Origin: an uncultured Muribaculaceae bacterium | GTDB lineage: Bacteria; Bacteroidota; Bacteroidia; Bacteroidales; Muribaculaceae | Assembly (NCBI GenBank): GCA_964562375.1 | Contig: CAZLSW010000001.1 | Span: forward strand, 32,871 to 96,870 | Length of the DNA stretch: 64,000 nt | Reading direction: 5' to 3' | In this document: positions 3,694 to 57,358 of the stretch, piece after piece | How the letters are laid out: each line of letters starts with the position of its first letter | Numbering within the stretch: position 1 is the first letter of the stretch | Program-made: the position numbers and the translations under genes | The notes under the pieces: generated by a model | The model's database searches: none | What the model saw: the letters and a program-made list of their open reading frames with translations, nothing else | What the model was told of the DNA's origin: nothing

Positions 3694-3715
3694 GTCGGGC
3701 CGGGGGCGGCCCGAC
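3694..3715. repeat. Single REP-like palindrome (variant) between the two FKBP genes
   Basis: GTCGGGCCG-GGGG-CGGCCCGAC followed by TTCCT, same family as the clustered elements, located 22 nt after the stop of the upstream FKBP gene. Confidence 0.8.
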
Positions 3716-3736
3716 TTCCTTCCTCTTGGGGAATAT

Positions 3737-4363
3737 TTACTTGGGGTTAACCTTGAGGAGCTCCACGTCGAAGATAAGGGTGGCGTTGGGCGGGATAGCG
3801 CCGGGTGCTCCCTGAGGGCCGTAAGCGAGGTTGGAGGGGATGAACAGGCGCCACTTTGAGCCTTCGTTCATGAGTTGAAGGGCCTCAACCCACCCGGGGA
3901 TAACCTGGGTGACACCAAAGGTGGCCGGGATACCGCGGTCGACCGAGGAGTCGAATACTGTGCCGTCGATCAACTTGCCGGTGTAATGAACCTCCACCTT
4001 GTCAGTGGCTGTAGGCTTGGGGCCTTCGCCTTGGGTAATCACCTCGTACTGCAGACCGCTGGGAGTGGTCAACACGTCGACACGCTTGCCGTTCTCGGCG
4101 AGGAACTCCTCACCGGCTTTCTTGTTGACCTCGGCCATGCGAGCGGCCTCGGCTTCTTGTTCCTTTTGCATCTTCTCGAAGAAGGCTTGAATCTCTTTCT
4201 TGGCCTCGTCGTAGCTCATCTTGGGAGCCGAGCCGTAGAAAACAGCGGCCACGCCGTCGGCGAAGTCTTGGATGTTGATTTCCTTGATTCCCGAAGCACG
4301 GAAATTGTTGCCCATGGAAAGGCCCAGGGCATAAGAGATACGGTCGAGGGAATTGGTTTCCAT
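3737..4363 (-). CDS. FKBP-type peptidyl-prolyl cis-trans isomerase
   Basis: 208 aa with YTGKLIDGTVFDSS and LFIPSNLAYG motifs. Confidence 0.9.
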   Translation of the reverse strand: METNSLDRISYALGLSMGNNFRASGIKEINIQDFADGVAAVFYGSAPKMSYDEAKKEIQAFFEKMQKEQEAEAARMAEVNKKAGEEFLAENGKRVDVLTTPSGLQYEVITQGEGPKPTATDKVEVHYTGKLIDGTVFDSSVDRGIPATFGVTQVIPGWVEALQLMNEGSKWRLFIPSNLAYGPQGAPGAIPPNATLIFDVELLKVNPK

Positions 4364-4483
4364 AATCGTTGAGTTTTAAGATTAATAGATTCGCGCCGCG
4401 AAGTTAAGCAAAATGCGGGCAAAAAATTAACAATTTTCTTTAAATTATGGTTCATGGCGTGCAACCTTAGCACCGCATTAGCT

Positions 4484-4503
4484 CCCCGCGGTAACCCGCG
4501 GGG
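4484..4503. repeat. GC hairpin CCCCGCGG-TAAC-CCGCGGGG downstream of vsr (CCGCGG-type palindrome family)
   Basis: Perfect 8-bp stem 63 nt after the vsr stop. Related CCGCGG-centred palindromes lie at 30961-30997, 49997-50032 and 53405-53442. Confidence 0.7.
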
Positions 4504-4565
4504 CACGCAACCGCTATGGAGGATCCTTTCATCCTTTCCTCCTTTAAGGGGTGGATAAGAGAGGA

Positions 4566-5060
4566 TTAGAGGGGGTCCTCGGCGGCGATGGTGAGGGGGA
4601 GGTCGTCGGGAGGGAAAGAGTAGGGGGATGGGGCCACTGGCTGGGAGCGGAAAGCCTCGAGGGTGGCGGCCAGGCGCTCCAGGGTAGCATGGCGTTGTGG
4701 TTTGGCCAGCTCACATTCCCAGATGGTAATCACATTCCATCCCATTTGTCTCAACTTTTGCGCTACCTCTTGATCCCGCTGGCGATTGCGCTCTATTTTG
4801 GCAAGCCAAAAAACGGAATTGGTTTTTGGAAGTCGAAAACAACTTCCATCATGGCCGTGCCAGAAACAACCATGGATAAAAATGACTGTTTTTATGCCTG
4901 GAAAGACAATGTCGGGACGGCCTGGTAGATCTGCCCGATAAAGGCGGTAACGGAATCCTCGTGTCCACAGGAATTGACGCACGAGTCGCTCGGGGCGCGT
5001 GTCGCGGGAGCGTACAGCGCTCATGCACCGATGTCGTTGCTCGGGTGTCATCTTGTCCAT
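4566..5060 (-). CDS. vsr: Very short patch repair endonuclease
   Basis: RSRDTRPE and GRPDIVFPGIKTVIFIHGCFWHGH motifs; 164 aa. Confidence 0.9.
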   Translation of the reverse strand: MDKMTPEQRHRCMSAVRSRDTRPERLVRQFLWTRGFRYRLYRADLPGRPDIVFPGIKTVIFIHGCFWHGHDGSCFRLPKTNSVFWLAKIERNRQRDQEVAQKLRQMGWNVITIWECELAKPQRHATLERLAATLEAFRSQPVAPSPYSFPPDDLPLTIAAEDPL

Positions 5061-5139
5061 GTAATAATAACGCTTTTAGGGGAATTTATATTTTATTTTT
5101 CTTACTGTCCCGCCGACACGATGTGACTTCCTTTCTGGA

Positions 5140-5481
5140 TGTTGATAACCATGTTGATAAGTGTTGATAATTGGATGAGGGATTTTTATAGATTGTATTT
5201 GGAGGGAAAGGAAAGTTGTATATACCTGAAAGTAAATTAAGCCTCCAAAAAAGATAGCGTAATGTTATAAGCGCGGAATAGACGCAGAAAATGGAAGTTA
5301 TCAATACCAAGTGTGGGGAAAATTTATTAACTTCGCGAGTTGTAAACATGGTGTTAATAAGTAATTGATTTCATTGTGTTTCAATGCGATTGGATGTTGA
5401 TAACCTGATAATAAAGCCAATCTTGATATTTATAACTTAAAATGCAAGAAAAAGAGGAAAAAGTTATAGAGGTTATCAACA
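5140..5481. promoter_or_regulatory. Cluster of DnaA-box-like 9-mers (TGTTGATAA / TTATCAACA) in an AT-rich 480-bp intergenic region; candidate oriC or DnaA-regulated region
   Basis: Boxes at 5140-5148, 5152-5160, 5162-5170, 5395-5403 and 5473-5481, with variants at 5298-5306 and 5352-5360. Each of the five exact copies is one mismatch from TTATCCACA. The region 5061-5543 is visibly far more AT-rich than its flanks. Confidence 0.45.
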
Positions 5482-5543
5482 CCCCATATAAATCATCATA
5501 AAGAAAGTTTTTTTGAAAAAAAATTTTTTTAAAAGAAAATATA

Positions 5544-6500
5544 ATGACTGTTGACAAACACCCGGAAAGGGATGCCGAAAAACTCAAAGAAGAGATAAAG
5601 CTACTGAAAGAGGAGCGCGGCGCGGTGATCCTGGGTCATTATTACACCGAAGGCGACGTGCAGGACGTGGCCGACTTCATCGGCGACTCGCTTGCCTTGG
5701 CTCAAGTGGCCAAGACCCTGGAGGCCCCAGTGGTGGTGATGTGCGGCGTTCACTTCATGGGGGAGACGGTGAAAATACTGTGCCCCGAGAAGACGGTGCT
5801 CGTTCCCGACTTGGCAGCCGGTTGCTCCCTTGCCGACAGTTGCCCGGCCGATGAGTTTGAGGCTTTCATCAAGGAGCATCCCGGCCACACAGTAATTTCC
5901 TATGTCAACACAACAGCCGGCGTGAAGGCCTTGACCGATATTGTGGTGACGTCGTCCAACGCCAAGAAGGTGGTGGATTCGTTACCCAAGGATGAAAAGA
6001 TAATCTTCGGTCCCGACCGCAATCTGGGTGATTACATCAACCGTTGCACGGGACGAAACATGGTGATATGGAACGGTGCATGCCACGTGCATGAGCAATT
6101 CTCGGTGGAAAAACTTGTGGAGCTTAAAAAGCAGCATCCCCAAGCCAAGGTTTTGGCCCATCCCGAGTGCAAGAAACCCATCCTGTTGCTCGCCGACAAG
6201 GTAGGATCCACCGCCGCTTTGCTCAACTTTGCCAAAGAGAGCGAAGCCAAGGAATTTATAGTGGTTACCGAGAGCGGCATCCTTCACCAGATGCGCAAGG
6301 ATTGCCCCGACAAGGTGTTCATTCCGGCTCCTCCCGAGGACAGCACCTGCGCTTGCAACAATTGCTCGTATATGAAACTCAACACCCTCGAGAAGATAAG
6401 CGACTGTTTGCGCGACCTTAAGCCTCAAATCGAGGTGGATGAGGCTATTATCGACCGTGCCCGCAAGCCAATCGAACGCATGCTGGAGATTAGTAAATAG
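5544..6500 (+). CDS. nadA: Quinolinate synthase
   Basis: 318 aa with ILGHYY and VHFMGE motifs and a cysteine cluster CACNNCSYM. Confidence 0.92.
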   Translation: MTVDKHPERDAEKLKEEIKLLKEERGAVILGHYYTEGDVQDVADFIGDSLALAQVAKTLEAPVVVMCGVHFMGETVKILCPEKTVLVPDLAAGCSLADSCPADEFEAFIKEHPGHTVISYVNTTAGVKALTDIVVTSSNAKKVVDSLPKDEKIIFGPDRNLGDYINRCTGRNMVIWNGACHVHEQFSVEKLVELKKQHPQAKVLAHPECKKPILLLADKVGSTAALLNFAKESEAKEFIVVTESGILHQMRKDCPDKVFIPAPPEDSTCACNNCSYMKLNTLEKISDCLRDLKPQIEVDEAIIDRARKPIERMLEISK

Positions 6501-6520
6501 TGGTGAGTTGTAAGTACTGT

Positions 6521-6590
6521 CGTGCACTCGTTTATTTGTTTATTCGTGCATTCGACATAATCCATAAACTAGAAACTAGAAACTAGAAAC
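6521..6590 (+). repeat. Modular leader array upstream of leuS: 8-mers (CGTGCACT-type) then (AACTAGA)x3
   Basis: CGTGCACT CGTTTATT TGTTTATT CGTGCATT, then AACTAGA x3, ending 12 nt before the leuS ATG. Confidence 0.85.
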
Positions 6591-6601
6591 TTTCAACCCG
6601 A

Positions 6602-9373: not shown

Positions 9374-9427
9374 TAAATTAGGCATTTTTACGTTATACAA
9401 TTGCCTAAGAATATTTTGGAAAAAGTA

Positions 9428-10009: not shown

Positions 10010-10032
10010 CATTCAGCATATACCCAATCTCT

Positions 10033-12513: not shown

Positions 12514-12515
12514 TC

Positions 12516-13790: not shown

Positions 13791-13791
13791 T

Positions 13792-19208: not shown

Positions 19209-19465
19209 CGTAATCAAATGATTACAATGGTTATTCACAAGGCGAGGGCAGTTATTATGCCAGCCAGAAGCGCCAGGCGCGCCAAGCGGGATATCCACCG
19301 AATGTGGCGGTCGCGGCGAGCGAAGCTGTCTTTGATATCGGTTACAATCGGTAGCATAGTTGTGTAAGCAAAGAAAGGGTTAATAAACTAAGTGAACATC
19401 ATTTTCCTTTATAACAATCAACTATGCCTTTTTGGCTCGCCAAAACCGCAAAAAAAGCGTTAAAG

Positions 19466-19566
19466 CAGGAGGTCCCGCCGTGTCGGCGGGACAGTTAGAC
19501 AAGAAGTCCCGCCGTGTCGGTGGGACAATAATTCTCTCGGGCCGACACGGCCCGACATCCTACTTG
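19466..19566. repeat. REP-like palindrome cluster (3 copies) downstream of asnS
   Basis: GTCCCGCCGTGTCGGCGGGAC, GTCCCGCCGTGTCGGTGGGAC and the inverted GGGCCGACACGGCCCGAC, with AGGA(A/G)GT / ACAG flanks. Confidence 0.9.
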
Positions 19567-31675: not shown

Positions 31676-33542
31676 TTACGATGTGATAGTGGTAGGCGCC
31701 GGGCATGCCGGTTGCGAGGCGGCAATGGCGGCTTCGCGGCTCGGCGCGTCAACGCTGTTGATCACTATCGACATGAACAAAATCGCCCAGATGAGCTGCA
31801 ACCCAGCCGTCGGGGGCATCGCCAAAGGCCAGATCGTGCGGGAAATCGACGCCATGGGTGGCCATATGGGAATCATCACCGACCGATCGGCGATACAGTT
31901 CCGTATGCTCAACCGCTCGAAAGGTCCGGCAATGTGGAGTCCGCGTTCGCAGTGCGACCGTATGAAATTCTCACTCCTTTGGCGACACACGCTCGAAAAC
32001 GCCCCTAACTTGTACATGTGGCAGGACAACGTCACCTCGCTGCTCATCGAGGATGGCAAGCTCGCGGGAGTAAAAACCGCCCTCGGTGTTGAGTTTCGCT
32101 CAAAGGCAGTTGTGCTTACCGCCGGCACTTTCCTCAACGGATTGATGCACGTGGGGCGCGCCCAGGTGAAAGGTGGCCGCGTGGCCGAGCCAGCTTCGCA
32201 CGGCATCACCGAACAGTTGCGCGACCTGGGTTTCGCCACCGACCGAATGAAGACCGGCACGCCTGTGCGCATCGACGCACGCTCGGTCGACTGGTCGCTC
32301 ACTACCGAGCAACTCGGCGACAACGATTTCCATAAATTCTCCTACCTCCCCGAGGTGCGACGTGAGTTGCGACAACTCCCATGCGCTATCGTATACACCA
32401 ACGAGCGCACCCACGATGTGCTGCGCGCAGGATTGCCCGACTCTCCTCTTTACAACGGCCAAATCCAGAGCATCGGTCCGCGCTACTGTCCCAGTATCGA
32501 AACAAAGATCGTCACCTTCGCCGACAAAACCGAGCATCAGCTCTTCCTCGAGCCGGAAGGCGAGGATACCCAAGAATACTACCTCAACGGCTTCTCATCG
32601 TCGCTTCCCCTGAAAGTGCAGATTGAAGCCTTGCAGACAATCCCCGCGCTGCGCGACGTACACATTTACCGTCCGGGTTACGCCATCGAATACGACTTCT
32701 TCGACCCGACCCAACTCTACCACACACTCGAAACCAAACTCCTCCCGGGACTCTTTTTCGCCGGTCAGGTCAACGGTACCACGGGATACGAAGAAGCCGC
32801 GGGCCAAGGCCTGGTGGCAGGTGCCAACGCCGCTTTGAAGGTGCAGGGTAGGGGGGAGTTCACCCTCTCCCGCGACGAAAGCTACATTGGAGTGCTTATC
32901 GACGACCTCGTCACCAAGGGGGTCGACGAGCCTTACCGAATGTTCACCTCACGCGCTGAGTACCGCATACTCCTACGCCAGGACGACGCCGCCATGCGCC
33001 TCACCCCAAAAGCCTACGCCGTCGGTCTGGTTGACGAGCGTCGCTACCAACTTACCGAACGCAAGCGCGCCCTGCGCGACTCCCTAATAGAATTTGCTCG
33101 CCGCTACTCAATCAAGGCGGCGCTGATCAACCCCGCGCTTGAGCAACTTGGCACCGCGCCCCTCACCCAAGGCACGCGCCTCTACGATCTGCTCCTGCGT
33201 CCTCAGTTATCCATCCCCGCGCTTGTCCCCCTTATCGACGCCCTCCGCCGCCGCGTGGAGGAGATTCCCAATGACCTGCGCGACGAAGTGGTGGAGTGCG
33301 CCGAAATCCTCATCAAGTACCAAGGTTACATCGACCGCGAGGCTCAAATCGCCCAAAAGCTGCGACGCCTCGAGGAGGTGAAACTCGGCGACCGTTTCGA
33401 CTACTCCACCATCCACCAGCTCTCCACCGAGGCCCGACAAAAGCTCGCGAAAATCCAGCCCGCGACCGTCGGACAAGCCTCCCGAATCCCCGGCATTTCC
33501 CCCAGCGACATAAACATCCTTCTGTTGCTGTTGGGACGCTAA
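31665..33542 (+). CDS. mnmG: tRNA uridine 5-carboxymethylaminomethyl modification enzyme MnmG (GidA)
   Basis: MKFNYDVIVVGAGHAGCEAA FAD fold; 625 aa. The ATG at 31665 overlaps the ybeY end; the ORF is open from 31572. Confidence 0.96.
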   Translation: MKFNYDVIVVGAGHAGCEAAMAASRLGASTLLITIDMNKIAQMSCNPAVGGIAKGQIVREIDAMGGHMGIITDRSAIQFRMLNRSKGPAMWSPRSQCDRMKFSLLWRHTLENAPNLYMWQDNVTSLLIEDGKLAGVKTALGVEFRSKAVVLTAGTFLNGLMHVGRAQVKGGRVAEPASHGITEQLRDLGFATDRMKTGTPVRIDARSVDWSLTTEQLGDNDFHKFSYLPEVRRELRQLPCAIVYTNERTHDVLRAGLPDSPLYNGQIQSIGPRYCPSIETKIVTFADKTEHQLFLEPEGEDTQEYYLNGFSSSLPLKVQIEALQTIPALRDVHIYRPGYAIEYDFFDPTQLYHTLETKLLPGLFFAGQVNGTTGYEEAAGQGLVAGANAALKVQGRGEFTLSRDESYIGVLIDDLVTKGVDEPYRMFTSRAEYRILLRQDDAAMRLTPKAYAVGLVDERRYQLTERKRALRDSLIEFARRYSIKAALINPALEQLGTAPLTQGTRLYDLLLRPQLSIPALVPLIDALRRRVEEIPNDLRDEVVECAEILIKYQGYIDREAQIAQKLRRLEEVKLGDRFDYSTIHQLSTEARQKLAKIQPATVGQASRIPGISPSDINILLLLLGR

Positions 33543-33632
33543 ATAGGAAGTCCCGCCAGCACGGCAGGACAGTAAAACAGGTCTCCTACAATAGGAGAAT
33601 GGAAGCCGGCTCGACCCGGCCCCGACAATAAA
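33543..33632. repeat. REP-like variant (GTCCCGCCAGCACGGCAGGAC) plus a second-family element directly after the mnmG stop
   Basis: The TAA stop of mnmG is followed by ATAGGAAGTCCCGCC.... ATGGAAGCCGGCTCGACCCGGCCCCGACAA matches 23644-23673. Confidence 0.8.
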
Positions 33633-34482: not shown

Positions 34483-34586
34483 CTGTCGGGCCGACACGGC
34501 CCGACCTCCTTCCTAAGCTAAGTAGGAGGTCCCGCCGTGTCGGCGGGACTGTTTTTCTGTCGGGCCGACACGGCCCGACTTCCTGT
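34483..34586. repeat. REP-like palindrome cluster (3 copies, alternating orientation)
   Basis: CTGTCGGGCCGACACGGCCCGACCTCCT, AGGAGGTCCCGCCGTGTCGGCGGGACTG and CTGTCGGGCCGACACGGCCCGACTTCCT. Confidence 0.92.
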
Positions 34587-34597
34587 CTAACCCTAGG

Positions 34598-40452: not shown

Positions 40453-40640
40453 TAAGTAGGACGTCAAGTAGGAAGTCGGGCCGTGTCGGCCCGACAGATC
40501 AGAAAGGAAGTCGGGCCGTGCCGCCCCGACAGATTAGAAAGGAAGTCGGGCCGTGTCGGCCCGACAAATTAGAAAGGAGGTCGGGCCGACACGGCCCGAC
40601 AACCAATTCCGTCCCGCCGACACGGCGGGACATCCTATTT
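40453..40640. repeat. REP-like palindrome cluster (5 copies, about 35-nt period)
   Basis: Three forward copies of AGGAAGTCGGGCCGTG(T/C)CGGCCCGACA spaced by ATCAGAA/ATTAGAA, then two inverted copies (…GCCGACACGGC…). Confidence 0.95.
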
Positions 40641-40727
40641 AGCGGGGGCCAATCTCCTATTTACCATTGTCATTTTTCCACAAAAATCATTTTATTTCAA
40701 GAAAAATGTAAAATTATTTTGGTAATT

Positions 40728-42247: not shown

Positions 42248-43330
42248 TTAACAACTCTTTGGCTCACCCCTATACTGGTAGTGGTTGCGTAGTGATTCGA
42301 AGGCTTGCGGCCGGGCTTTTAGCTCGGCCGTATCCTTTCGGGGGTCGTAGCTGGCCAAAAGCGCCTCCACGCTCACAGTATCGGCCACAGGTGGTAGTTT
42401 AGGCAGGAAGTCGGGCCGTGTCGGCCCGACAGAAAGAAAGTCCCGCCGTGTCGGCCCGACAGAAAGGAAGTCCCGCCGTGTCGGCCCGACAGAAAGGAAG
42501 TGCTCCCTCACGGCGGCGACGGCTATCAGGGTAGCCCGTTGCTTGCCTTCCAGGGAGTAACCGGCTATATGCGGCGTGGCGATCTCGGCAAGCGACAATA
42601 ACCCGGGACTGATGTTAGGCTCTCCCTCCCAGCAGTCAATCGCGGCGCCAGTAATTTGGCCGCTCCGCAACGCCTCAACCAGTGCAGGCGTATCGACCAC
42701 TGGGCCGCGAGCCGCATTGAAAATCAGCGGTTTTTGCTCGCACTTGCCGAAGAAATCGGCATCGGCCATATGGAATGTTCGATCCTCGCCTTCGCGGGTG
42801 AGAGGCGTGTGGAAAGTTATCACGTTGGCTTCGCGAGCGATCTCGTCGAGCGTCACGAAACCCTCAGCGCCCTCCTCGCGAGCTCTTGGCGGGTCGCAGA
42901 GTAGCACCTTGATTCCCAATCCCTTGGCCCATCTTTGGACAATCTTGCCCACATGGCCCACGCCAACTATTCCCAAAACTGTGCCCTCGAGTGGGCGCAT
43001 GGCCATCAGCGACGTGAGCACCCACTGGGCCACGCCCGGAGCGTTGCAGCCAGGGGCGTTCCTCACCTCAATTCCACGCGACGCGCAATAGGGGAGGTCG
43101 ATATGGTCGGTGCCGATAGTCGCGGTCGCAATCATCTGGCAACGAGAGTGTTCCAGCAAGTTGGCGTTGCATTTCGTGCGTGTGCGGGTAACCAGCGCAT
43201 CGACGTCGCGCATCGCCTCCGGCGTGATTTCCTCGGCGGGGAGATACCTCACCTGGCCAAGGTCCTCAAGCATTCCTTGGATGAACGGGATGTTGGCCTC
43301 GACCACGATGTTTAAGCCGTGAGATTCCAT
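42248..43330 (-). CDS. pdxB: D-isomer-specific 2-hydroxyacid dehydrogenase, erythronate-4-phosphate dehydrogenase (PdxB)-like, carrying three in-frame repeat insertions
   Basis: GIVGVGHVGK NAD fold and ATPHIAGYS. Start at MESHGLNIVV (ATG 43330). FLSVGPTRRD x3 is encoded by REP-like copies. Confidence 0.75.
   Translation of the reverse strand: MESHGLNIVVEANIPFIQGMLEDLGQVRYLPAEEITPEAMRDVDALVTRTRTKCNANLLEHSRCQMIATATIGTDHIDLPYCASRGIEVRNAPGCNAPGVAQWVLTSLMAMRPLEGTVLGIVGVGHVGKIVQRWAKGLGIKVLLCDPPRAREEGAEGFVTLDEIAREANVITFHTPLTREGEDRTFHMADADFFGKCEQKPLIFNAARGPVVDTPALVEALRSGQITGAAIDCWEGEPNISPGLLSLAEIATPHIAGYSLEGKQRATLIAVAAVREHFLSVGPTRRDFLSVGPTRRDFLSVGPTRPDFLPKLPPVADTVSVEALLASYDPRKDTAELKARPQAFESLRNHYQYRGEPKSC
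42401..42500. repeat. Three tandem REP-like copies (30-nt period) inside the pdxB-like CDS
   Basis: Cores at 42410-42430, 42440-42460 and 42470-42490. The 30-nt period equals 10 codons and reads through as (F)LSVGPTR(R/P)D. Confidence 0.95.
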
Positions 43331-44292
43331 AGGTAAAGTGCTGAGTAAACGATGATTATCGTGAGTATGGGAATTGCCGAAGCACGGGTGCGGTGGGTGG
43401 CGAACAGGTGCCCGGCTTGGTAGGCCACTGCGCAATTGAGAAGCGGCACGTAAATGTAGGCCTGATAGAAGTCAAACACTGCCAGCAGGGCGGCTCCAAT
43501 CATCAGCACGGTCATGAATCCGTTGCAGGCGCGCGTGCGGGAATTATAGGAAAGGAAGCGGATGAAATTGCCCATCAAGCAAGTGATACCCAGCAGGATA
43601 GTCACGCCGATTGTGGCCACCAGTGGCACGATTTCGCCTGTGTTTAATTGGCTGAAGAAGTTGGTGAACGTGGGCAACGTGAAGTTACGGTAATCAATTA
43701 GACCGAATCCAATCAGAATCCACGCCGGGGTAATCATGCCCAGTAGCGCTGCCACGAAGGTGCGCCACGATAGCACGCGCATCTGCGCGCATCCAATCAA
43801 CGCGAGCGGTATTAAACCGATTGCCGCGTATTGCGTCATCGCCGTCAGGGCGATCAGGAAAAACGCCAAGAACACGCTGCGTGACTGTCCAGGCTGCCCA
43901 TAAACGTCGAACAGTATCGCCGCCACCACAATGGCCAGCAGAGCCAACAGAGTGCCTCCGTAGAAGCCCTCCATGAGGTCGGGAGTGGCCGCCTGGAGAA
44001 TCAGGAACAAGCCGGGGCCGAGCATCGACATGCCTCGCAACAGGTTGTAGGCGCGGTTGAGGTAAACCATCAGCAGAGCTATGGCCACGTTTACGGCGAA
44101 ATTAACCCCCAGCGAGATCCACCCCGCCGGAAGCCATTGGTTAGGCGACATCAACCCAAGGCCACGATTGACGTGCACGGCTTGCGCGGGATAGTTCTCG
44201 GCGGCGAACCATACGGCGGCCAAGGCCACCAGCATCAACACCGCGGCCCCAGCCCTATCGTGAAAAAACCTCGTCAGCGCCCCCTTCATCAT
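43312..44292 (-). CDS. Polytopic membrane protein of unknown function
   Basis: 326 aa with about 9 hydrophobic segments. Overlaps the pdxB-like start and the toxin stop. Confidence 0.6.
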   Translation of the reverse strand: MMKGALTRFFHDRAGAAVLMLVALAAVWFAAENYPAQAVHVNRGLGLMSPNQWLPAGWISLGVNFAVNVAIALLMVYLNRAYNLLRGMSMLGPGLFLILQAATPDLMEGFYGGTLLALLAIVVAAILFDVYGQPGQSRSVFLAFFLIALTAMTQYAAIGLIPLALIGCAQMRVLSWRTFVAALLGMITPAWILIGFGLIDYRNFTLPTFTNFFSQLNTGEIVPLVATIGVTILLGITCLMGNFIRFLSYNSRTRACNGFMTVLMIGAALLAVFDFYQAYIYVPLLNCAVAYQAGHLFATHRTRASAIPILTIIIVYSALYLWNLTA

Positions 44293-46179: not shown

Positions 46180-46240
46180 AACGCGATAATTTTCCCGCAA
46201 AGTTACAACATTTTCTCTAAATAGCGAGTTTACCCTCAAT

Positions 46241-46405
46241 CAAGTAGGAAGTCGGGCCGTGCCGGCCCGACAGATAGAAAGGACGTCGGGCCGTGTCGGC
46301 CCGACAGATCAGAAAGGAAGTCGGGCCGTGCCGGCCCGACAGAAAACGTGTCCCGCCGGCACGGCGGGACATCCTACTTATAAAAGGGGACATCCTACTT
46401 ATAAA
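46241..46405. repeat. REP-like palindrome cluster (4 copies) plus a duplicated flank (GGACATCCTACTTATAAAAG x2)
   Basis: Three forward GTCGGGCCGTG(C/T)CGGCCCGAC copies and one GTCCCGCCGGCACGGCGGGAC. Confidence 0.95.
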
Positions 46406-46466
46406 AGCGAGAGGAATCCCCCGCATGCGGGAAATTCCTCTCGTAAATGGGTGGTAAAGTGGAAGG

Positions 46467-47465
46467 TTACTCAGCCTTGCCAGCCGAACCAAGCACGTTC
46501 TCGATTTTGTGCTTGTAGAGCTTCTCCATCTCGTCGCGAGCCGGGCCCAGATACTTGCGGGGGTCAAACTCACCGGGCTTCTCGTCGAACACCTTGCGAA
46601 CGGCGGCGGTCATGGCCAGACGCGAGTCGCTGTCGATGTTGATCTTGCATACGGCGCTCTTGGCGGCCTTGCGGAGCTCCTCCTCGGGGATACCGATGGC
46701 ATCAGGCAACTTGCCACCGTGCTTGTTGATCATGTCAACATACTCCTGGGGAACCGAGCTGGAGCCGTGGAGAACGATGGGGAAACCGGGGAGCTTCTCC
46801 ATTACGGCGTCGAGCACGTCGAATGCCAATGGCGGGGGAACCAGCTTGCCCTCGGCGTTGCGAGTGCACTGCTCGGGGGTGAACTTGTAGGCGCCGTGGC
46901 TGGTGCCGATGGAGATGGCCAACGAGTCGCAACCAGTGCGGGTAGCGAAGTCGATTACCTCCTCAGGGTCGGTGTAGGTGTGGTGGTCGGCCGATACCTC
47001 GTCCTCTACGCCGGCGAGCACGCCCAGCTCACCCTCAACCGTTACGTCAAACTGGTGGGCGTAGTCAACCACTTTCTTGGTCAGGGCCACGTTCTCCTCG
47101 TAGGGCAGGTGGCTACCGTCGATCATCACCGACGAGAAACCGTTGTCGATGCACGATTTGCACAGCTCGAAGGAATCGCCGTGGTCCAAGTGAAGCACAA
47201 TTTGGGGATGCTCCCAGCCGAGCTCCTTGGCGTAGGCAACAGCGCCCTGAGCCATATAGCGCAGAAGGGTGGCGTTGGCATAGTTGCGTGCGCCCTTCGA
47301 TACCTGGAGGATTACAGGCGATTTCTCCTCGGCTGATGCCTTGATGATGGCCTGTAGCTGCTCCATGTTGTTGAAGTTGAAGGCGGGGATGGCATATCCT
47401 CCCTTGATGGCTTTGGCGAACATCTCACGGGTGTTGACCAAACCTAAGTCTTTGTAGCTTACCAT
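46467..47465 (-). CDS. fba: Class II fructose-bisphosphate aldolase
   Basis: AIPAFNFNN, LHLDHG and MIDGSH motifs. Start at MVSYKDLGL (ATG 47465). Confidence 0.95.
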   Translation of the reverse strand: MVSYKDLGLVNTREMFAKAIKGGYAIPAFNFNNMEQLQAIIKASAEEKSPVILQVSKGARNYANATLLRYMAQGAVAYAKELGWEHPQIVLHLDHGDSFELCKSCIDNGFSSVMIDGSHLPYEENVALTKKVVDYAHQFDVTVEGELGVLAGVEDEVSADHHTYTDPEEVIDFATRTGCDSLAISIGTSHGAYKFTPEQCTRNAEGKLVPPPLAFDVLDAVMEKLPGFPIVLHGSSSVPQEYVDMINKHGGKLPDAIGIPEEELRKAAKSAVCKINIDSDSRLAMTAAVRKVFDEKPGEFDPRKYLGPARDEMEKLYKHKIENVLGSAGKAE

Positions 47466-47512
47466 TTGAAACTTATTTATTGGTGAATTTCTGAAATTGC
47501 TATTTCCGAGCG

Positions 47513-47520
47513 CAAATTTA
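47513..47520 (-). promoter_or_regulatory. -7 promoter box TAAATTTG for fba
   Basis: Exact TAnnTTTG on the minus strand 48 nt upstream of the fba ATG. Confidence 0.45.
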
Positions 47521-47592
47521 CTGATTTTTTCTCTCGCGGTGAAATTTTTGGCATAAAAACCGTATCTTCGCGTTATAAAAACCAATCATATT

Positions 47593-48150: not shown

Positions 48151-48174
48151 TCCTCACCTCGTTTCCTCGATAGT

Positions 48175-48252: not shown

Positions 48253-48262
48253 GCTCCCTTAT

Positions 48263-49927: not shown

Positions 49928-49934
49928 CAGTACG

Positions 49935-50035
49935 ATCAAGCCACCGTGCCCCGCGGTCAGAAAGGAAGCCGGGCCGTGTCGGCCCGGCAGTATAAACAAG
50001 CCACCGTGCCCCGCGGTTTGCCGCGGTGGTCTTCC
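49935..50035. repeat. Nested composite: CCGCGG-type element interrupted by a REP-like copy, then a complete CCGCGG-type element
   Basis: CAAGCCACCGTGCCCCGCGG | TCAGAAAGGAAGCCGGGCCGTGTCGGCCCGGCAGTATAAA | CAAGCCACCGTGCCCCGCGGTTTGCCGCGGTGGTC. Confidence 0.85.
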
Positions 50036-50083
50036 CCCCAGTTCGATTTCCCTCGATTTCCCCCGATTTCAGTCGAAAAAATT

Positions 50084-51199
50084 ATGAAATATTCCCGCCT
50101 AGCCGTCAAAATCGGCTCCAACGTCCTCTCCCGCCCCGACGGCACCCTCGACATCACCCGAATGAGCGCCCTGGTCGACCAAGTGGCCGAGCTGCGTCGC
50201 ATGGGTCTCGACATCGTCATGATCTCATCGGGAGCAGTCGCCGCCGGCCGCTCCGAGCTCAGAAAGGATGTCGGGCCGTGTCGGCCCGACAGAGACACGC
50301 CAAAACCCCTCGACTCCGTCTCCCAGCGACAGCTCTTCTCAGCCGTCGGCCAAGCCAAATTAATCAACCGCTACTACGAGCTCTTCCGCGACCACGGCCT
50401 ATCCTGCGGCCAGGTCCTCACCACCAAAGAAAACTTCTCCACCCGCCGCCATTACCTCAACCAAAAGCACTGCATGGAGGTAATGCTCGCCGCTGGCGTC
50501 ATTCCTATCGTCAACGAAAACGACACCGTGTCGCTCACCGAACTGATGTTCACCGACAACGACGAGCTCTCGGGCCTGATCGCCGCCATGATGGGCATGG
50601 ACGTTTTGGTGATCCTAAGCAATATAGATGGTGTATACGACGGCGATCCCGCCGACCCGGAGTCGCGTCTTATCACCGACGTGGCTCCGGTTGACGACCC
50701 CACGCGCTACGTGCAAGCGGCCAAATCCTCGCTCGGCCGCGGGGGGATGGGCACCAAGATGCGCATCGCCCGCAAGGTGGCCTCCGAGGGCCTCGATGTG
50801 ATTATCGCCAACGGCAAACGCCCCAACATCCTCATCGACCTTATCTCGCGTGACGACACCCCCTGCACCGTCTTCCACGCCGCTGCCGTCGAGCCCTCGA
50901 GCGTTAAGAAATGGATTGCCCACAGCGAGGGATTCGCCAAGGGTGAGGTGCATGTCAACCAAGGCGCTGCCGACGCGCTCCTCTCAGGCACCGGCGCCAG
51001 CCTTTTGGCTGTAGGAGTTACCCGCATTGTGGGCGATTGGGAAAAGGACGACGTCGTGAAAGTAATCGCCCCCGATGGCCGCCAGATCGCCCTCGGCCGA
51101 GTCAGCTACTCCTCGTCCACTACTGCCAAGGTAATGGGCCGCACAGGCCAGCGCCCAGTAATCCACAGCGATTACCTCTACCTCGAAGGCTGCCCTTAA
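50084..51199 (+). CDS. proB: Glutamate 5-kinase (with PUA domain), carrying one in-frame repeat insertion
   Basis: VKIGSNVL, SSGAVAAG, AVGQAKL and a C-terminal PUA domain. Start at MKYSRLAV (ATG 50084). Confidence 0.92.
   Translation: MKYSRLAVKIGSNVLSRPDGTLDITRMSALVDQVAELRRMGLDIVMISSGAVAAGRSELRKDVGPCRPDRDTPKPLDSVSQRQLFSAVGQAKLINRYYELFRDHGLSCGQVLTTKENFSTRRHYLNQKHCMEVMLAAGVIPIVNENDTVSLTELMFTDNDELSGLIAAMMGMDVLVILSNIDGVYDGDPADPESRLITDVAPVDDPTRYVQAAKSSLGRGGMGTKMRIARKVASEGLDVIIANGKRPNILIDLISRDDTPCTVFHAAAVEPSSVKKWIAHSEGFAKGEVHVNQGAADALLSGTGASLLAVGVTRIVGDWEKDDVVKVIAPDGRQIALGRVSYSSSTTAKVMGRTGQRPVIHSDYLYLEGCP
50261..50295. repeat. REP-like copy inside the proB CDS
   Basis: AGAAAGGATGTCGGGCCGTGTCGGCCCGACAGAG, read through as RKDVGPCRPDR between SSGAVAAGRSEL and the AVGQ region. 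Confidence 0.95.
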
Positions 51200-51227
51200 T
51201 GCTTTAAAGGTTTAATGATTTAAATCC

Positions 51228-52412
51228 TTATAGCTTTAAGGCTTTAAGGCTGAGGCGATCCACCAGCGTCGCCAGCGCGCAATCCCCCGTGACGTTACAC
51301 GCCGTCCCGAAATTATCCATCGCGATATACAACGCGATCATCAACGCATTCATCTCCTCGGTAAAGCCAAGGATTGACGACAAGATGCCCAATGAAGCCA
51401 TAATCGCGCCGCCTGGGATACCCGGCGCGGCCACAATCGCTATACCCAGCATCGCGGCCAGTTGCAGGAACATCCCCGCGTCGTAGGGCACGCCCTGGTA
51501 AATCATCAACGCCAGCGCGCACGCCACGATTTTCAGTGCCGAGCCGCTCATGTGGATTGTCGCGCATAGGGGGATAACAAAACCCGCCACGCTCTCGTTG
51601 ACACCCGTCTTGATTGTCTGCTTCAGCGTCACTGGTATCGTGGCGGCTGAGCTCTGCGTGCCCAGCGCGGTCATATACGCCGGAAGCATCGTGCGCAGCA
51701 TCTTCAGCGGATTCCGCTTGGCGGCCGCTCCCGCGATGCTGTATTGCAGCAACAAGATGCCGATATGAAGCACGAAAATCACCGCGATCACCTTCACGAA
51801 CGTCTGCAGGATCGCTCCCACCTGCCCCTCCATGGTCATCGTAAGGAAGATTCCGAAGATGTACACCGGCAGCAACGGGATTATCACGCCGCGGATGGTC
51901 AAGTCGATGATGTCGCGAAATTGTCGGGCCGCTTTGCTCAGACCGTCAGCGTGGGTGTAAGCTATGCCGATGCCCACGGTGAACGACAGCACAAGCGCGG
52001 TCATCACCCCCATCGGCGCCGGTATCTCCACCGTGAACCACGGCTTAGAAAGGATGTCGGGCCGTGTCGGTCCGACAGTATAGGCCCCCTCAGGTGAAAT
52101 GATATCCGGGAAAATCGCCGCGCCGGTAAAATATGAAATCGCGCCCGCGAGGAACGTCGCCGAATAGGCAAGCACCACGGTTGTTAGCAGCATCTTGCCG
52201 GCACCGCGCCCGATGTCGCCGATTGCCGGCGTGACAAAGCCGATGATAATCAGCGGAATAAGGAACCCCAGGAACTGGCCGAAAATACCGTTGAATGTGG
52301 CGCACAGAGCCGCCAACCACCCCGGCGCCACCATTCCCGCGCCTATTCCCAGCGCGATAGCTATTATAATGCGGGGAAGCAACCCCATCTTGGTTAACGC
52401 TTTGAAACTCAT
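51228..52412 (-). CDS. Sodium:dicarboxylate/amino-acid symporter family transporter (SstT-like), carrying one in-frame repeat insertion
   Basis: Polytopic protein with PLCATIHMSGSAL and AAPGIPGGAIMA motifs. Start at MSFKALTK (ATG 52412); the longer ORF to 52493 only translates repeat DNA. Confidence 0.85.
   Translation of the reverse strand: MSFKALTKMGLLPRIIIAIALGIGAGMVAPGWLAALCATFNGIFGQFLGFLIPLIIIGFVTPAIGDIGRGAGKMLLTTVVLAYSATFLAGAISYFTGAAIFPDIISPEGAYTVGPTRPDILSKPWFTVEIPAPMGVMTALVLSFTVGIGIAYTHADGLSKAARQFRDIIDLTIRGVIIPLLPVYIFGIFLTMTMEGQVGAILQTFVKVIAVIFVLHIGILLLQYSIAGAAAKRNPLKMLRTMLPAYMTALGTQSSAATIPVTLKQTIKTGVNESVAGFVIPLCATIHMSGSALKIVACALALMIYQGVPYDAGMFLQLAAMLGIAIVAAPGIPGGAIMASLGILSSILGFTEEMNALMIALYIAMDNFGTACNVTGDCALATLVDRLSLKALKL
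52047..52080. repeat. REP-like copy inside the transporter CDS
   Basis: AGAAAGGATGTCGGGCCGTGTCGGTCCGACAGTA, read through on the minus strand as TVGPTRPDILS. Confidence 0.95.
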
Positions 52413-52450
52413 ATTCCTAAAACGCAGAAATCCCCCGCTTATTGCCTTAG

Positions 52451-52562
52451 CTAAGTAAGTAGGAAGTCCCGCCGTGCCGGCGGGACAGCTCAAGTAGGAA
52501 GTCCCGCCGTGCCGGCGGGACAGTTTTCTCTGGCGGGCCGTGCCGGCCCGCCTTCCTTTCTA
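52451..52562. repeat. REP-like palindrome cluster (3 copies) upstream of the transporter
   Basis: Two AAGTAGGAAGTCCCGCCGTGCCGGCGGGACAG copies and one GGCGGGCCGTGCCGGCCCGCC variant. Confidence 0.92.
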
Positions 52563-52690
52563 AATGAGGGATACCCCTTGTAACAATCCTGTAACAAAAA
52601 ATCTCAAAATTTAATCATCAGTTATTCAATTATTTATCCTTAAAAATCCCTATCTCTTAAAATTTTTAACAAAAAATATTTGTAAAATTA

Positions 52691-52719
52691 TTTGCACAGA
52701 AAAATATTTTGTATATTTG
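52691..52719 (+). promoter_or_regulatory. Candidate promoter (-33 TTTG, -7 TATATTTG) for the ECF sigma factor
   Basis: TATATTTG at 52712-52719 and TTTG at 52691-52694. The 17-nt spacing is slightly short. 78 nt upstream of the ATG. Confidence 0.45.
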
Positions 52720-52796
52720 AGACGTGAAACGGAAAAATCGACTATTTACCCTATCGCGCTATTTACTAATTTCTATTCATCTAAAACTTCACTACT

Positions 52797-53300
52797 ATGG
52801 GCTCCTCTAAATTCCAATCCAATCTCATGAAGCTGCAAAGCAATATGCTCAACTTCGCTTATATGCTTACCGCCAACCGCGACGACGCTTACGACCTCCT
52901 CCAGGACACCACCCTCAAAGCTCTCGACAACGAAGAGAAGTACATCGACAACACCAACTTCAAAGGCTGGGTGTTCACCATCATGCGCAACATCTTCATC
53001 AACAATTACCGCCGCGTGGCCCGCGCAGCCACTGTTGTCGACTCCACCGAAAACCTCTACCACCTGAATCTCTCCCAGGATTCAGGCTTGGAAACTCCCG
53101 AAGGCGCCTTTGGCGCCAAGGAGATCACTCAATACCTGAGCGAGTTTCCCGACGAATATCGCGTTCCTTTCTCGATGCACGTCGCCGGCTACAAGTACAA
53201 CGAGATCGCCGAGAAGATGAACCTCCCCCTTGGCACCGTCAAGAGCCGCATCTTCTTCGCCCGCCAGCGCCTCCAGAAGCGTTTCGCCGATTACCGCTAA
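52797..53300 (+). CDS. RNA polymerase sigma-70 factor, ECF subfamily
   Basis: Region 2 (DLLQDTTLKAL...GWVFTIMRNIFINNYRR) and region 4 (YNEIAEKMNLPLGTVKSRIFFARQRL). No adjacent anti-sigma gene. Confidence 0.9.
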   Translation: MGSSKFQSNLMKLQSNMLNFAYMLTANRDDAYDLLQDTTLKALDNEEKYIDNTNFKGWVFTIMRNIFINNYRRVARAATVVDSTENLYHLNLSQDSGLETPEGAFGAKEITQYLSEFPDEYRVPFSMHVAGYKYNEIAEKMNLPLGTVKSRIFFARQRLQKRFADYR

Positions 53301-53445
53301 GTAGGAGGTCCCGCCGTGCCGGCGCCCCAGCTTAAGTAGGAAGTCCCGCCGTGCCGGCGCCCCAGCTTAAGTAGGAAGCTGGGCCGTGTCGGCCCAGCAG
53401 TATCAACAAGCCACTGTGCCCCGCGGTTTGCCGCGGTGGTCTCCT
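53298..53445. repeat. REP-like cluster (3 copies) plus a CCGCGG-type element, starting on the sigma-factor stop codon
   Basis: TAAGTAGGAGGTCCCGCCGTGCCGGCGCCCCAGC x2, then AGGAAGCTGGGCCGTGTCGGCCCAGCAG and CAAGCCACTGTGCCCCGCGGTTTGCCGCGGTGGTC. Confidence 0.92.
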
Positions 53446-53482
53446 GAAAAAGCCCCCATAGTTACTTAAATACGCAATTGAA

Positions 53483-53510
53483 AGGGCCGTCCCCGGCTGG
53501 GGACGGCCCT
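53483..53510 (-). terminator. Stem-loop downstream of the capsid-like gene
   Basis: AGGGCCGTCCCC-GGCT-GGGGACGGCCCT, a perfect 12-bp stem, followed on the minus strand by TTTCAATT. Confidence 0.6.
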
Positions 53511-53553
53511 CAATCATGCGTCAGCCCTGGGAGGGGACGGCCTTAATCACCTG

Positions 53554-54975: not shown

Positions 54976-55112
54976 AAAAGTTGAATGTTGAAAGTTGAAT
55001 GTTGAAAGGTTTCTAGTTCCTAGTTTTTAGTTAATGGGGTAATTTTAAAGGAGGAAAGGATAAAAGGGGCTATTATAAGCCCCCGTTTCGGGGGGGTGGG
55101 GGCCGATTCGGC

Positions 55113-55442
55113 TTAGTCCCAGATGGAGCGTCGGATGTGATTGAGGATCAGGGCCTTGGCCGACTGCGTGGGAGCTTCCAGCTCGCGAGGCCGCGACATC
55201 AGCTCCTCAATGCGTTCATTACGGCCCTTAAGATAACCGCGGCGCTCAGCCGCAGCAAGAACCTCTTCAAGATCCACTCGAGTGACCTCCGGCCTGGGCC
55301 CTTGCGACGCCACTGGCTCGGCTGAGGTGGCACCCTCTTCATTGTGCCCCGTGCACTCTTCACTGAGCCCTGTGCGCTCTTCGTTGTGCCCTGTGCACTC
55401 TTCATTGTGCACTTCCTGGTTGATGGTTTCATTTTCTTCCAT
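55113..55442 (-). CDS. Small acidic/helical protein upstream of the capsid-like gene (scaffold-like position)
   Basis: 109 aa. N-terminus built from 4 x 21-nt repeats (HNEECTG/HNEERTG/LSEECTG/HNEEGAT) and a helical charged C-half (LEEVLAAAERRGYLKGRNERIEELM). Confidence 0.45.
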   Translation of the reverse strand: MEENETINQEVHNEECTGHNEERTGLSEECTGHNEEGATSAEPVASQGPRPEVTRVDLEEVLAAAERRGYLKGRNERIEELMSRPRELEAPTQSAKALILNHIRRSIWD

Positions 55443-55653
55443 AGCATTATTGGTTTTTGGTGGTTAAGAATTACGGTACAAAATTACCCCCGGCTATGGG
55501 CCGAGGGTATGTCATTTTCACCAAAAGCATATTTTTTTTCATGTTATCGACAATTTTGGGCAGTTATCAACACGGGAGGCGGTTTTTGCTTTTTAGTTTT
55601 TGGTATTTGACGGAAATGATGTTACTTTGCATTGTGCAAAATTATAATTGCTT

Positions 55654-56427
55654 ATGGGTAAAATAATTGCAATAGCCAATCAGAAAGGCGGAGTAGGAAA
55701 AACCACCACCACCATCAACTTGGGAGCCTCCCTCGCGGCCGCCGGCCAAAAAGTGCTTATTATCGACGCCGACCCCCAGGCCAACGCCACATCGGGATAC
55801 GGTATCGACCCAAAATCGATGACCTCATCCATTTACGAGTGCCTGGTGGACAACTACCCCCTGCAAGGCTCCCAAGTGAAGACGTGTGTCGAGGGCCTCG
55901 ACCTTATCGGCTCCCGTATCGACCTCGCTGGCGCCGAGCTTGAACTGATCAACAAATCCGACCGCGAGCGCGTGCTTCAACACCTACTGGAGCCTATCGC
56001 TCCACAATACGACTATATCCTCATCGACTGCTCCCCGTCGCTGGGCTTGATAACTGTGAACGCGTTGACAGCCGCGCAGTCGGTAATAATCCCGGTCCAG
56101 GCCGAGTATTTCGCCCTCGAGGGAATCTCCAAGTTGTTGAACACTATACGCATCATCAAGTCGCGACTCAACCCCCATCTCGAGATTGAGGGATTCCTCT
56201 TGACAATGTACGACGCGCGCCTGCGCTTGGCCAACCAGATTTACGAGGAGCTGAAGGGACATTTCGGGCAGATGGTGTTTGACACCGTCATCCCGCGCAA
56301 CATCCGCCTAAGCGAGGCCCCGAGCCACGGCCTGCCGGCGCTCCTCTACGACCCCGAGAGCCGCGGAGCCACATCCCACGTGATGCTCGCCAAAGAAATC
56401 ATCTCCAAGAACTCCAAGAATAAATAA
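55654..56427 (+). CDS. parA: Chromosome partitioning ATPase ParA (Soj)
   Basis: Deviant Walker [15 protein letters not shown] at 55654; the ORF-track start at 55648 is a TTG. Confidence 0.95.
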
Positions 56428-56428
56428 T

Positions 56429-57307
56429 ATGGCATTGAAACGCAACGCATTAGGGCGAGGCCTTGACTCGCTAATACCAATGGACGACGTGCCCGCCGCC
56501 GGCACGACGGCTATAAACACCGTGCCACTAAGCCAAATCTCGCCCAATCCCGATCAACCTCGCCAGACATTCGCCCAGGATGCTCTGGACGACTTGACGC
56601 GCTCGATCACAACGTATGGCGTGCTTCAGCCCATTTCCCTGAGGCAAGTTGGCCCCTCAAGCTACCAGATAATCGCTGGTGAGCGTCGCTATCGTGCCGC
56701 TTTGGCCGCAGGTCTGCGCGAGATCCCCGCATATATACGCGACGCCAACGAGCAAGAGCTCACCGAGATGGCTCTAATCGAGAACATCCAGCGCGAGGAT
56801 CTCAACCCCATCGAAATCGCCCTTACCTACAACAAGCTCATCGACCAATATCACCTCACCCAGGAGCAGCTTTCGGAACGCATCGGCAAAAGTCGAGCTG
56901 TGATCGCCAACGCGTTGCGCATGCTTCGCCTGCACGCTGATGTGCAATTGGCCCTGAGCGAGAGGCGATTGACCGAGGGACATGCCCGCGCTATTCTAAG
57001 GTTGGACGACCACCAGATGCAGAATAAACTGTTCCATCGTATCCTGGCCGAGGACCTGAGCGTGCGCCGCGCCGAAGAGCTTGCCAAAGAGATGCTCGAG
57101 GGGGTGGAAATAACCCCCAAGAAACCCACGCTAAAACGCGAAAAAAACCGCCTTTTCGACGAATTGAAGCAAAACCTCTCCGCCCGCTTTTCCGCTCCCG
57201 TCCAGCTCCATTGCGACGCCAACGGAAAAGGCCGCATTACCTTCTCCTTCCGCGACCAAGAGCAGCTCACCCGCCTGATCGCCCTCTTCGACCAAATCCA
57301 AGGCTAA
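56429..57307 (+). CDS. parB: Chromosome partitioning protein ParB (Spo0J)
   Basis: GERRYRAA box and an HTH region; 292 aa. Starts 2 nt after parA. Confidence 0.95.
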   Translation: MALKRNALGRGLDSLIPMDDVPAAGTTAINTVPLSQISPNPDQPRQTFAQDALDDLTRSITTYGVLQPISLRQVGPSSYQIIAGERRYRAALAAGLREIPAYIRDANEQELTEMALIENIQREDLNPIEIALTYNKLIDQYHLTQEQLSERIGKSRAVIANALRMLRLHADVQLALSERRLTEGHARAILRLDDHQMQNKLFHRILAEDLSVRRAEELAKEMLEGVEITPKKPTLKREKNRLFDELKQNLSARFSAPVQLHCDANGKGRITFSFRDQEQLTRLIALFDQIQG

Positions 57308-57358
57308 GTAGGAAGTCCCGCCGTTAAGTAGGAAGTCCCGCCGTGCCGGCGGGACAGC
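57305..57358. repeat. REP-like copies (one truncated, one full) starting on the parB stop codon
   Basis: TAAGTAGGAAGTCCCGCCGT | TAAGTAGGAAGTCCCGCCGTGCCGGCGGGACAG. Confidence 0.92.

Follow-up and report, generated by a model that had tools for sequence, protein, structure and literature searches.

A GTAG-tagged family of REP hairpins and a REP-flanked RAYT gene in an uncultured Muribaculaceae bacterium

To our knowledge, systems in which repetitive extragenic palindromic (REP) hairpins accompany a REP-associated tyrosine transposase (RAYT) have been studied almost entirely in Proteobacteria; GTAG REP families and REPtrons, the REP-flanked RAYT loci, are reportedly also treated by Nunvar 2010 and Ton-Hoang 2012. 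The subject of this study is a palindromic element that recurs in a 64-kb stretch of DNA from an uncultured Muribaculaceae bacterium (C1:32871-96870; hereafter the window, to which all positions given without a contig refer), and which an earlier note, made from the letters of the window, had compared with enterobacterial REP elements. The element forms a large family, and the same genome carries one RAYT gene with arrays of the same REP on both sides; very probably, the members of this GTAG-tagged family are the non-autonomous hairpins of a REP-RAYT system (REPtron).

The closest described relatives are the GTAG REPs, GC-rich hairpins of 20-40 bp with an unpaired GTAG tag at one end (PMC3733652). 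They form dimers, head-head as well as tail-tail, some of them obligate heterodimers of units with different stems, are positioned after open reading frames (ORFs) for which the tag can supply the stop codon, occur occasionally in frame within genes, and flank the RAYT gene in REPtrons (PMC3733652). All of these features are shared by the family described here. That survey detected GTAG REPs in Proteobacteria, Cyanobacteria, Chloroflexi, and PVC bacteria, whereas only CGTC repeats were found in Bacteroidetes (PMC3733652).

Two further systems invite comparison. As with the Y and Z types of the E. coli REP/BIME elements, two REP subtypes alternate here in inverted orientation; unlike E. coli REPs, the stems are perfect 9-bp palindromes with a 3-nt loop. 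The family resembles the Pseudomonas REPINs (PMC3116915) in that inverted doublets form one long hairpin and in having one vertically kept RAYT per family, but differs from them in the two 2x2 mismatches built into the doublet stem, which result from joining halves of different type, in highly variable spacers of 9-10 nt, and in singlets and direct runs being as common as doublets. Its RAYT also belongs to another clade than those of the REPINs.

Census and anatomy of the hairpin family

An exact search of the window with the core pattern GTC-SS-GCCG-N(2-6)-CGGC-SS-GAC returned 20 perfect cores; 27 cores were found when up to three mismatches were allowed, and 29 matches with a profile of the 34-nt unit. 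Copies at 3694 (with a 4-nt loop), 33550, and 52532 are additional to these 29, which agrees well with the earlier count of about 30. The genome-wide census that had been proposed as a check was carried out on the whole assembly (3.35 Mb, 155 contigs, 54.7% GC). It contained 244 exact GTC-SS-GCCG-NNN-CGGC-SS-GAC cores, far beyond the 0.003 expected from base composition, and the core pattern read backward, used as a control, had no match in the genome. With two mismatches or fewer, 373 units were counted in 144 clusters, 56 of which were single units, and nhmmer gave 412 profile matches at E<=0.01, corresponding to ∼0.4% of the sequence; all these numbers are lower bounds, as the assembly is fragmented. 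REP density in the window is ∼3.7-fold the genome average (29 profile matches in 64 kb versus 412 in 3.35 Mb). All eight clusters listed for the window exist, but three of them need correction. What had been placed at 49.94 kb as a cluster is one unit (49968), and the site at 57.31 kb, listed among the clusters of three to five units, comprises one half unit and one full unit. The cluster at 53.30 kb is present, but the right arm is degenerate in two of its copies, and one is a GCTGGGCCG/CGGCCCAGC variant.

The unit spans ∼34 nt and is composed of the sequence YA(A/G)-(GT/AA/GC)-AGGA-N, a 9-bp stem, a TGY loop, the return stem, and an AG tail. Each unit is polar, and its orientation deduced from the unpaired 5′ tag (YAR-NN-AGGA-N; commonest form TAAGTAGGAA) agrees with that deduced from the loop. 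Among 369 oriented units, the tag YAAGTAGGA was counted 172 or 175 times, depending on the tally, YAGAAAGGA 67 times, and YAGGCAGGA 66 times. The GTAG of the commonest tag lies three bases (GAN) from the stem; this distance, and the two non-GTAG variants GAAAGGA and GGCAGGA, which make up about a third of units, set the family apart from the GTAG REPs described before.

The stem is interchangeable at positions 4-6, where it reads GGG/CCC or CCC/GGG. Sorted by positions 4-5, the exact cores comprised 127 of the CC/GG (C) type, 109 of the GG/CC (G) type, and only 5 non-pairing hybrids in the whole genome, two of them in the window (42440 and 42470). A single hairpin of either stem type folds at −12.3 kcal/mol, a hybrid at −4.4 kcal/mol. 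Pairing was thus preserved between the two stem versions, as the earlier note had stated, and over all units the stems were paired in 97% of the cells compared (97.4% for copies within genes, which are as well paired as those outside). Its further conclusion, that the hairpin itself is under selection, stands insofar as pairing is kept; the stem versions, however, are two propagated subtypes and not ∼30 independent events. Because these subtypes were propagated, as inverted heterodimers and by homotypic tandem copying, the two versions reflect one or a few ancestral events. The rarer double-sided stem changes, which are T-A at stem position 7 in 20 units and GCC../..GGC, GGC../..GCC, and GCT../..AGC, give some further support to selection for pairing, for which recognition by a transposase is as likely a cause as a host function. 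Stem mismatches gave no clear signal as to a functional strand (34 G-T versus 21 A-C, p=0.10).

Neighboring units are arranged according to their type. Head-head pairs (convergent, with the tags outside), 30-31 nt apart, joined a G with a C unit in 64 cases and units of the same type in 1, all 20 tail-tail pairs, 44 nt apart, were of mixed type, and direct neighbors, 34-36 nt apart, were of the same type in 107 cases and mixed in 5. The stem versions therefore behave as two subtypes, each the partner of the other in inverted dimers, and the period of 30-36 nt noted earlier resolves into a core-to-core distance of 30-31 nt in inverted pairs and of 34-36 nt in direct repeats. Direct head-tail runs are the commonest neighbor arrangement in the genome, unlike in most described GTAG families, in which they are under-represented. 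A doublet folds as one long hairpin (−33.5 kcal/mol), interrupted by a 2x2 internal loop at each of the two places where its halves are of different type. The doublet spacers are nearly all different in sequence, but with the G-type unit on the left they are rich in A (241 A versus 129 T, p=6e-9); doublet polarity (G-type unit, A-rich spacer, C-type unit) is therefore conserved. In the head-head doublets at 40580 and 52532, one partner has its loop inverted with respect to the tag (ACA in a unit with a plus tag, TGC in a unit with a minus tag), so that both loops are identical and not complementary; such flipped loops could stem from loop inversion by hairpin processing.

The fixed 34-36-nt period of the same-type direct runs is what would be expected if a GC-rich palindrome had multiplied only by minisatellite-like local duplication and recombination, with no transposase involved. 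Broken-arm variants were indeed copied in tandem (53308/53343 and 42440/42470), and at 49968 flanking DNA was duplicated along with the unit. Yet local duplication cannot scatter units over many contigs in 144 separate clusters, of which 56 are single units, nor insert single units precisely into otherwise conserved genes and gene junctions, which makes it a very improbable sole cause. The same palindromic period is superficially like that of short CRISPR arrays. The 9-15 nt between cores are conserved (AG tail plus AGGA tag) and are not unique spacers, though, and the units occur in both orientations; a search against Rfam found no family for the repeats and only a tRNA in the window. That the arrays are CRISPR-like, or belong to another known structured RNA gene family, can thus be practically dismissed. 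CRISPR, integron attC sites, and miniature inverted-repeat transposable elements with terminal inverted repeats and target-site duplications were dropped as candidates on anatomy.

The copies in the window are as follows (strand in brackets where one was assigned; G and C, stem type; plus and minus signs before the type, unit orientation):
3682..3727: single unit with a 4-nt loop, core GTCGGGCCG-GGGG-CGGCCCGAC at 3694-3715, found by exact search
5105..5137 (minus): degenerate single unit, profile E=0.003
19462..19565: three units (+C, +C′, −G′) in a convergent intergenic region, of which the second and third form a heterotypic head-head dimer
33540..33631 (plus): TAA stop of mnmG (33540-33542), then a 90-nt insert with one REP and a decayed second unit
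34483..34590: three units (−G, +C, −G) in a convergent intergenic region, forming first a tail-tail pair and then a head-head heterodimer
40464..40641: five units in a divergent intergenic region, three direct G-type (35-nt period), then a G/C head-head heterodimer
42399..42492 (plus): three units in a pdxB-like gene with an exact 30-nt period, units 2 and 3 being non-pairing CC/CC hybrids
46240..46380: four units, three direct G-type, then an inverted C-type
49957..49990 (plus): single unit with compensatory GCC../..GGC stem in a 155-nt spacer, flanked by a 20-nt direct duplication (CAAGCCACCGTGCCCCGCGG)
50259..50292 (plus): single unit in frame in proB, reading RKDVGPCRPDR
52045..52078 (plus): single unit in frame (antisense) in an SDF-family transporter gene (51228-52493), reading TVGPTRPDILS
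52456..52562: three units, two direct C-type, then an inverted GGC../..GCC G-type, upstream of the transporter's likely start
53298..53398 (plus): three direct units (profile matches) starting with the TAA stop of the gene 52797-53300, two with a degenerate right arm and the third a GCT../..AGC compensatory variant
57305..57357 (plus): half unit and full C-type unit, the TAA of the half unit being the stop of the gene 56429-57307

The unit at 3694 is part of a 111-nt insert, which begins at the stop codon of a minus-strand gene (3737-4363), and the REP of the mnmG insert (core 33550-33570) carries two G-to-A changes. Other repeats were observed beside the copies. A second repeated module, CAGTATMAACAAGCCACYGTGCCCCGCGGTTTGCCGCGGTGGTCT, with the hairpin CCGCGG-TTTG-CCGCGG, is found at 49990-50033 and 53396-53442, each time after a G-type REP; at 49968, the REP has a copy of the first 20 nt of the module on either side. 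Short TCGATTTCCC repeats lie upstream of proB (50043-50075), and a tandem array of a 10-nt unit (TCGAAAGAAA / TCGAGAGAAA / TCGATTTAAG) occupies 57370-57490, directly after the REP at 57335. Beside the REP cluster at 46240, a perfect 16-bp hairpin followed by CTTTTAT (46408-46443, minus), downstream of the gene 46467-47585, is a conventional terminator-like site.

The REP-flanked RAYT gene

No Y1 transposase gene was found in the 64-kb window, as had been stated for RAYTs in the earlier note. Genome-wide, there were three Pfam Y1_Tnp matches, and only one of these genes is accompanied by REP arrays: C115:3662-4282, which encodes a HUH/Tyr transposase of 207 aa (Pfam Y1_Tnp 42 bits) and is flanked by 9 cores on one side and 5 on the other. 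The flanking cores are mostly G/C doublets, for example TTAAGTAGGAGGTCGGGCCGTGCCGGCCCGAC-tgggatgacc-GTCCCGCCGGCACGGCGGGACCTCCTACTTAA. The C115 locus is thus a REPtron. The gene is single-copy, with only one match in its own genome.

The protein contains MPNHIH (the HUH motif), W164, Y185, and N189. An Asn at position Y+4 is the state of TnpAREP, whereas IS608 has Gln (PMC6006769). Its best NCBIfam match was REP_Tyr_transpos (54.9 bits), compared with 27 bits for IS200. An AlphaFold model (pLDDT 83) retrieved as the top PDB match in Foldseek the E. coli RAYT-REP complex 4ER8 (E=1.5e-5, TM 0.43-0.53), followed by IS200/IS605 transposases. Both this protein and E. coli TnpAREP (RayT) are single-copy HUH/Tyr enzymes, but they share only ∼14% identity, and the C115 protein has ∼90 additional N-terminal residues with LPHW, DSLP, and GYGSC motifs.

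The nearest relative of the protein in the database is 49% identical. Homologues with 40-49% identity each have their own, different GC-rich palindromes in the flanks, which is the usual co-variation of REP and RAYT; a related-locus scan of the genome contigs with the RAYT as query revealed no relative. The motifs of the clade (NHIH, YIxNNP, about 200 aa) resemble those of subclass 2.4 / group 4, to which the RAYT may be assigned on this basis. Subclass 2.4 was reported in Cyanobacteria and Bacteroidetes (PMC6006769), and the 16-mers flanking group 4 genes are much less abundant (14 replicon-wide) than those of groups 2 and 3 (57 and 140, respectively; PMC6006769, PMC5581495). The two other Y1 genes (C7:611-1060, plus, and C7:18857-19348, minus) encode IS200-like proteins of 149 and 163 aa with DH(V/M)H and YI.NQ..HH motifs, have transpos_IS200 as the best NCBIfam match, and have no REP nearby. 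These proteins resemble the non-IS "subclass 1.2" of PMC6006769.

Relatives, empty sites, and placement relative to genes

The relatives of ProB place the organism in the Muribaculaceae. The REP family is nearly species-specific. The exact core, present 244 times in its own genome, was found 5 times in the sister species (G008), the DNA of which is 85-90% identical over a syntenic contig; the 299 further genomes that were sampled, 7 of the same genus and 292 from elsewhere in the Muribaculaceae, had none. The expansion is recent and confined to one species. The few copies in G008 have the same tags and stand beside decayed copies.

Three orthologous sites were compared, and at all of them the relative is empty. 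In all relatives, MnmG has the C-terminus ...LLLLLGR*, and the TAA stop is shared with G008 and G005; after this TAA, the window has the 90-nt REP-bearing insert, whereas nothing is inserted in G008. At the 3694 site, where the window has its 111-nt insert, G008 continues without a gap. Upstream of proB, the genes of the closest relative (L008) overlap (ATGA) with no spacer between them, whereas in the window they are separated by the 155-nt REP-bearing spacer.

The RAYT homologues of G008 are only distant (49% and 44% identity), and one of them has an internal stop. The family thus predates the split from G008, and only where the cognate RAYT remained intact has it expanded or survived. The 49%-identical homologue (L089 / P0002 on C150 of G008) stops short of the Tyr motif. 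G008 contains just two copies of the hairpin that flanks it, ATGCCGCTG-CCCT-CAGCGGCAT, and the locus looks like a dead or dormant REPtron. The closest RAYT homologue in the database has the same flanks as that of G008 and also lacks the Tyr motif.

Gene context was taken from our own ORF and codon-bias calls, which are crude (83% coding; pdxB was missed), and the resulting counts are approximate. Compared with the numbers expected from spacer length, clusters were about as frequent as expected in unidirectional spacers (61 versus 59), more frequent between convergent genes (28 versus 18), and less frequent between divergent ones (5 versus 17); a further 34 lay inside ORFs and 16 at contig ends. 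Several of the clusters inside ORFs are at ORF starts, probably upstream of the true start, and were left out of the coding insertions. In unidirectional spacers, the units had the upstream stop at a median distance of 42 nt and the next start at one of 154 nt, and they were nearer to the stop in 44 of 61 cases. In 24 clusters, stop and core were exactly 7 nt apart, and in 6 clusters 3 nt, because the tag itself provides the stop codon, either with its TAA/TAG at −10 to −8 or with the TAG of its GTAG. At least 30 genes end in this way on a TAA/TAG of the REP, among them, in the window, mnmG (33540-33542) and the genes ending at 53300 and 57307. With the GTAG tag, the two kinds of inverted dimer, the proximity to stops, and the avoidance of divergent regions, the earlier description of the clusters as lying mostly 3′ of genes, in the manner of REP/BIME elements, proved correct.

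Enrichment after stops and between convergent genes would also be expected of hairpins that are mainly host regulatory elements (terminators, mRNA 3′-end stabilizers, or protein-binding sites), with the RAYT being incidental, and the 97% stem pairing, in-gene copies included, is compatible with such a role as well. In the sense orientation, however, the hairpin is followed by AG and mixed sequence and not by the T run of an intrinsic terminator. A weakly terminator-like arrangement is seen only in antisense, where the AGAAAGGA subtype yields a hairpin with TTCCTTTCT after it; a simple terminator scan flagged it. Copies are, moreover, also found in divergent promoter regions and in coding sequence, and a cognate REPtron is present. 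As the family is absent from 299 of 301 Muribaculaceae genomes, and the orthologous sites in the sister species are empty, no conserved host function depends on it. A primarily regulatory nature of the family is accordingly improbable, whereas a secondary use of some copies by the host is possible.

The orientation of clusters corresponded to the strand of the adjacent gene in 50 of 63 cases. Where the GC skew corrected for gene strand exceeded +0.02, there were 9 plus and 25 minus clusters; where it was below −0.02, there were 20 plus and 4 minus clusters (Fisher p=4e-5). Such a bias is what a replication-coupled single-strand mechanism would produce, but expression-linked skew could confound it, and it is a lead only. 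Since the gene-strand bias was not correlated with the corrected skew (rho −0.15), the sign of the leading strand was not obtained and the bias is given without direction. The corrected skew on C1 drifts from +0.075 (30 kb) to −0.087 (90-100 kb), with no sharp switch on this contig at a candidate oriC (window 5.1-5.5 kb).

Copies inside genes account for about 10-20% of clusters; most of the family is extragenic. The in-gene copies were read in all three frames and both orientations, several arrays lengthen C-termini, and the peptide cassettes VGPCRPD, GSPAVPAGQ, and MSGRVGPT are repeatedly encoded in housekeeping proteins. At the site of the REP peptide in ProB, eight orthologues (one of them an 89% identical protein) and E. 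coli ProB have a gap of 8-11 residues. In a NfnB/GltD-like gene (C41), three units add ∼25 residues between the Fe-S and FAD domains, compared with 4ylf_B. The three units in the pdxB-like gene (42248-43435, minus strand) read FLSVGPTRRD three times in the interdomain linker, and the Pfam SDF match of the transporter (38-413) spans its REP peptide. According to the ORFs, units are also contained in an ABC-F ATPase, a radical-SAM protein (five units), and an Smr-like protein. Rickettsia palindromic elements (RPEs) likewise are in-frame palindromes in conserved genes that encode short peptides in loops or linkers. Their sequence is unrelated, RPE-1 is longer, and the predominance of extragenic copies distinguishes the present family from them; we know of no dedicated transposase for RPEs.

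A probable REP-RAYT system in Muribaculaceae

The REPtron, the anatomy of the units and dimers, and the empty sites in relatives together make it very probable that the family consists of the non-autonomous hairpins of a REP-RAYT system, and we infer that the C115 RAYT is the mover of the units. In the mechanism envisaged, the RAYT would bind the folded hairpin and its tag on single-stranded DNA, cut and rejoin the DNA, and thereby spread units, or inverted doublets of a G and a C unit, to new sites; local duplication would then amplify units into same-type tandem runs. Copies would persist where they do little harm, that is, right after stop codons (with their own TAA/TAG serving as the stop), between convergent genes, and in frame in tolerant loops and linkers of proteins. 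Any role at the level of the host would be secondary, although one is possible for some copies.

Several observations weigh against this assignment. Neither transposition nor cleavage was observed. A true GTAG is present in only about half of units, the others having GAAAGGA or GGCAGGA. The RAYT scored below the curated cut-off of REP_Tyr_transpos (NF047646; 54.9 versus 80), an equivalog model built on proteobacterial RAYTs, and its Tyr motif, YLWKNV, departs from the YIxNNP of its clade. The gene has 37% GC in a genome of 54.7%, next to GC-rich arrays; a foreign origin or a special codon regime is possible. The widely varying doublet spacers are a poor fit to simple copying of a single master doublet, and for the dominant direct tandem runs, slippage or unequal recombination is a simpler explanation than transposition. 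Finally, the 155-contig assembly makes array lengths, like copy numbers, minimum values.

A more specific proposal is that of an active Bacteroidota REP-RAYT system, perhaps with a recently acquired 2.4-like RAYT, that inserts its units 3′ of TAA/TAG-like trinucleotides and on one replication strand. Such directed insertion would explain the units abutting stops (7 nt, 24 clusters), the orientation following strand asymmetry, and the peptide cassettes; for the time being, we consider it speculative and rather unlikely as a whole.

Every main feature of the family, namely the GTAG tag, heterodimers, donated stops, in-frame copies, and the REPtron, has a precedent among REP-RAYT systems (PMC3733652, PMC3116915, PMC6006769). 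Novelty lies in the clade of the host, in how large the family is for a RAYT of this clade, in the predominance of direct tandem runs, and in how many housekeeping genes carry copies. For the genome at hand, the REP arrays are probably one reason why the assembly is broken and why some ORF calls are spurious or extended. With ∼400 copies and an identifiable cognate RAYT, the family provides a clean case in Muribaculaceae, a dominant gut family, and, with a sister species that has only relics and with empty orthologous sites for comparison, a good natural system for asking how a REP population starts and expands, what role the two stem subtypes play, and how frequently such elements are written into proteins.

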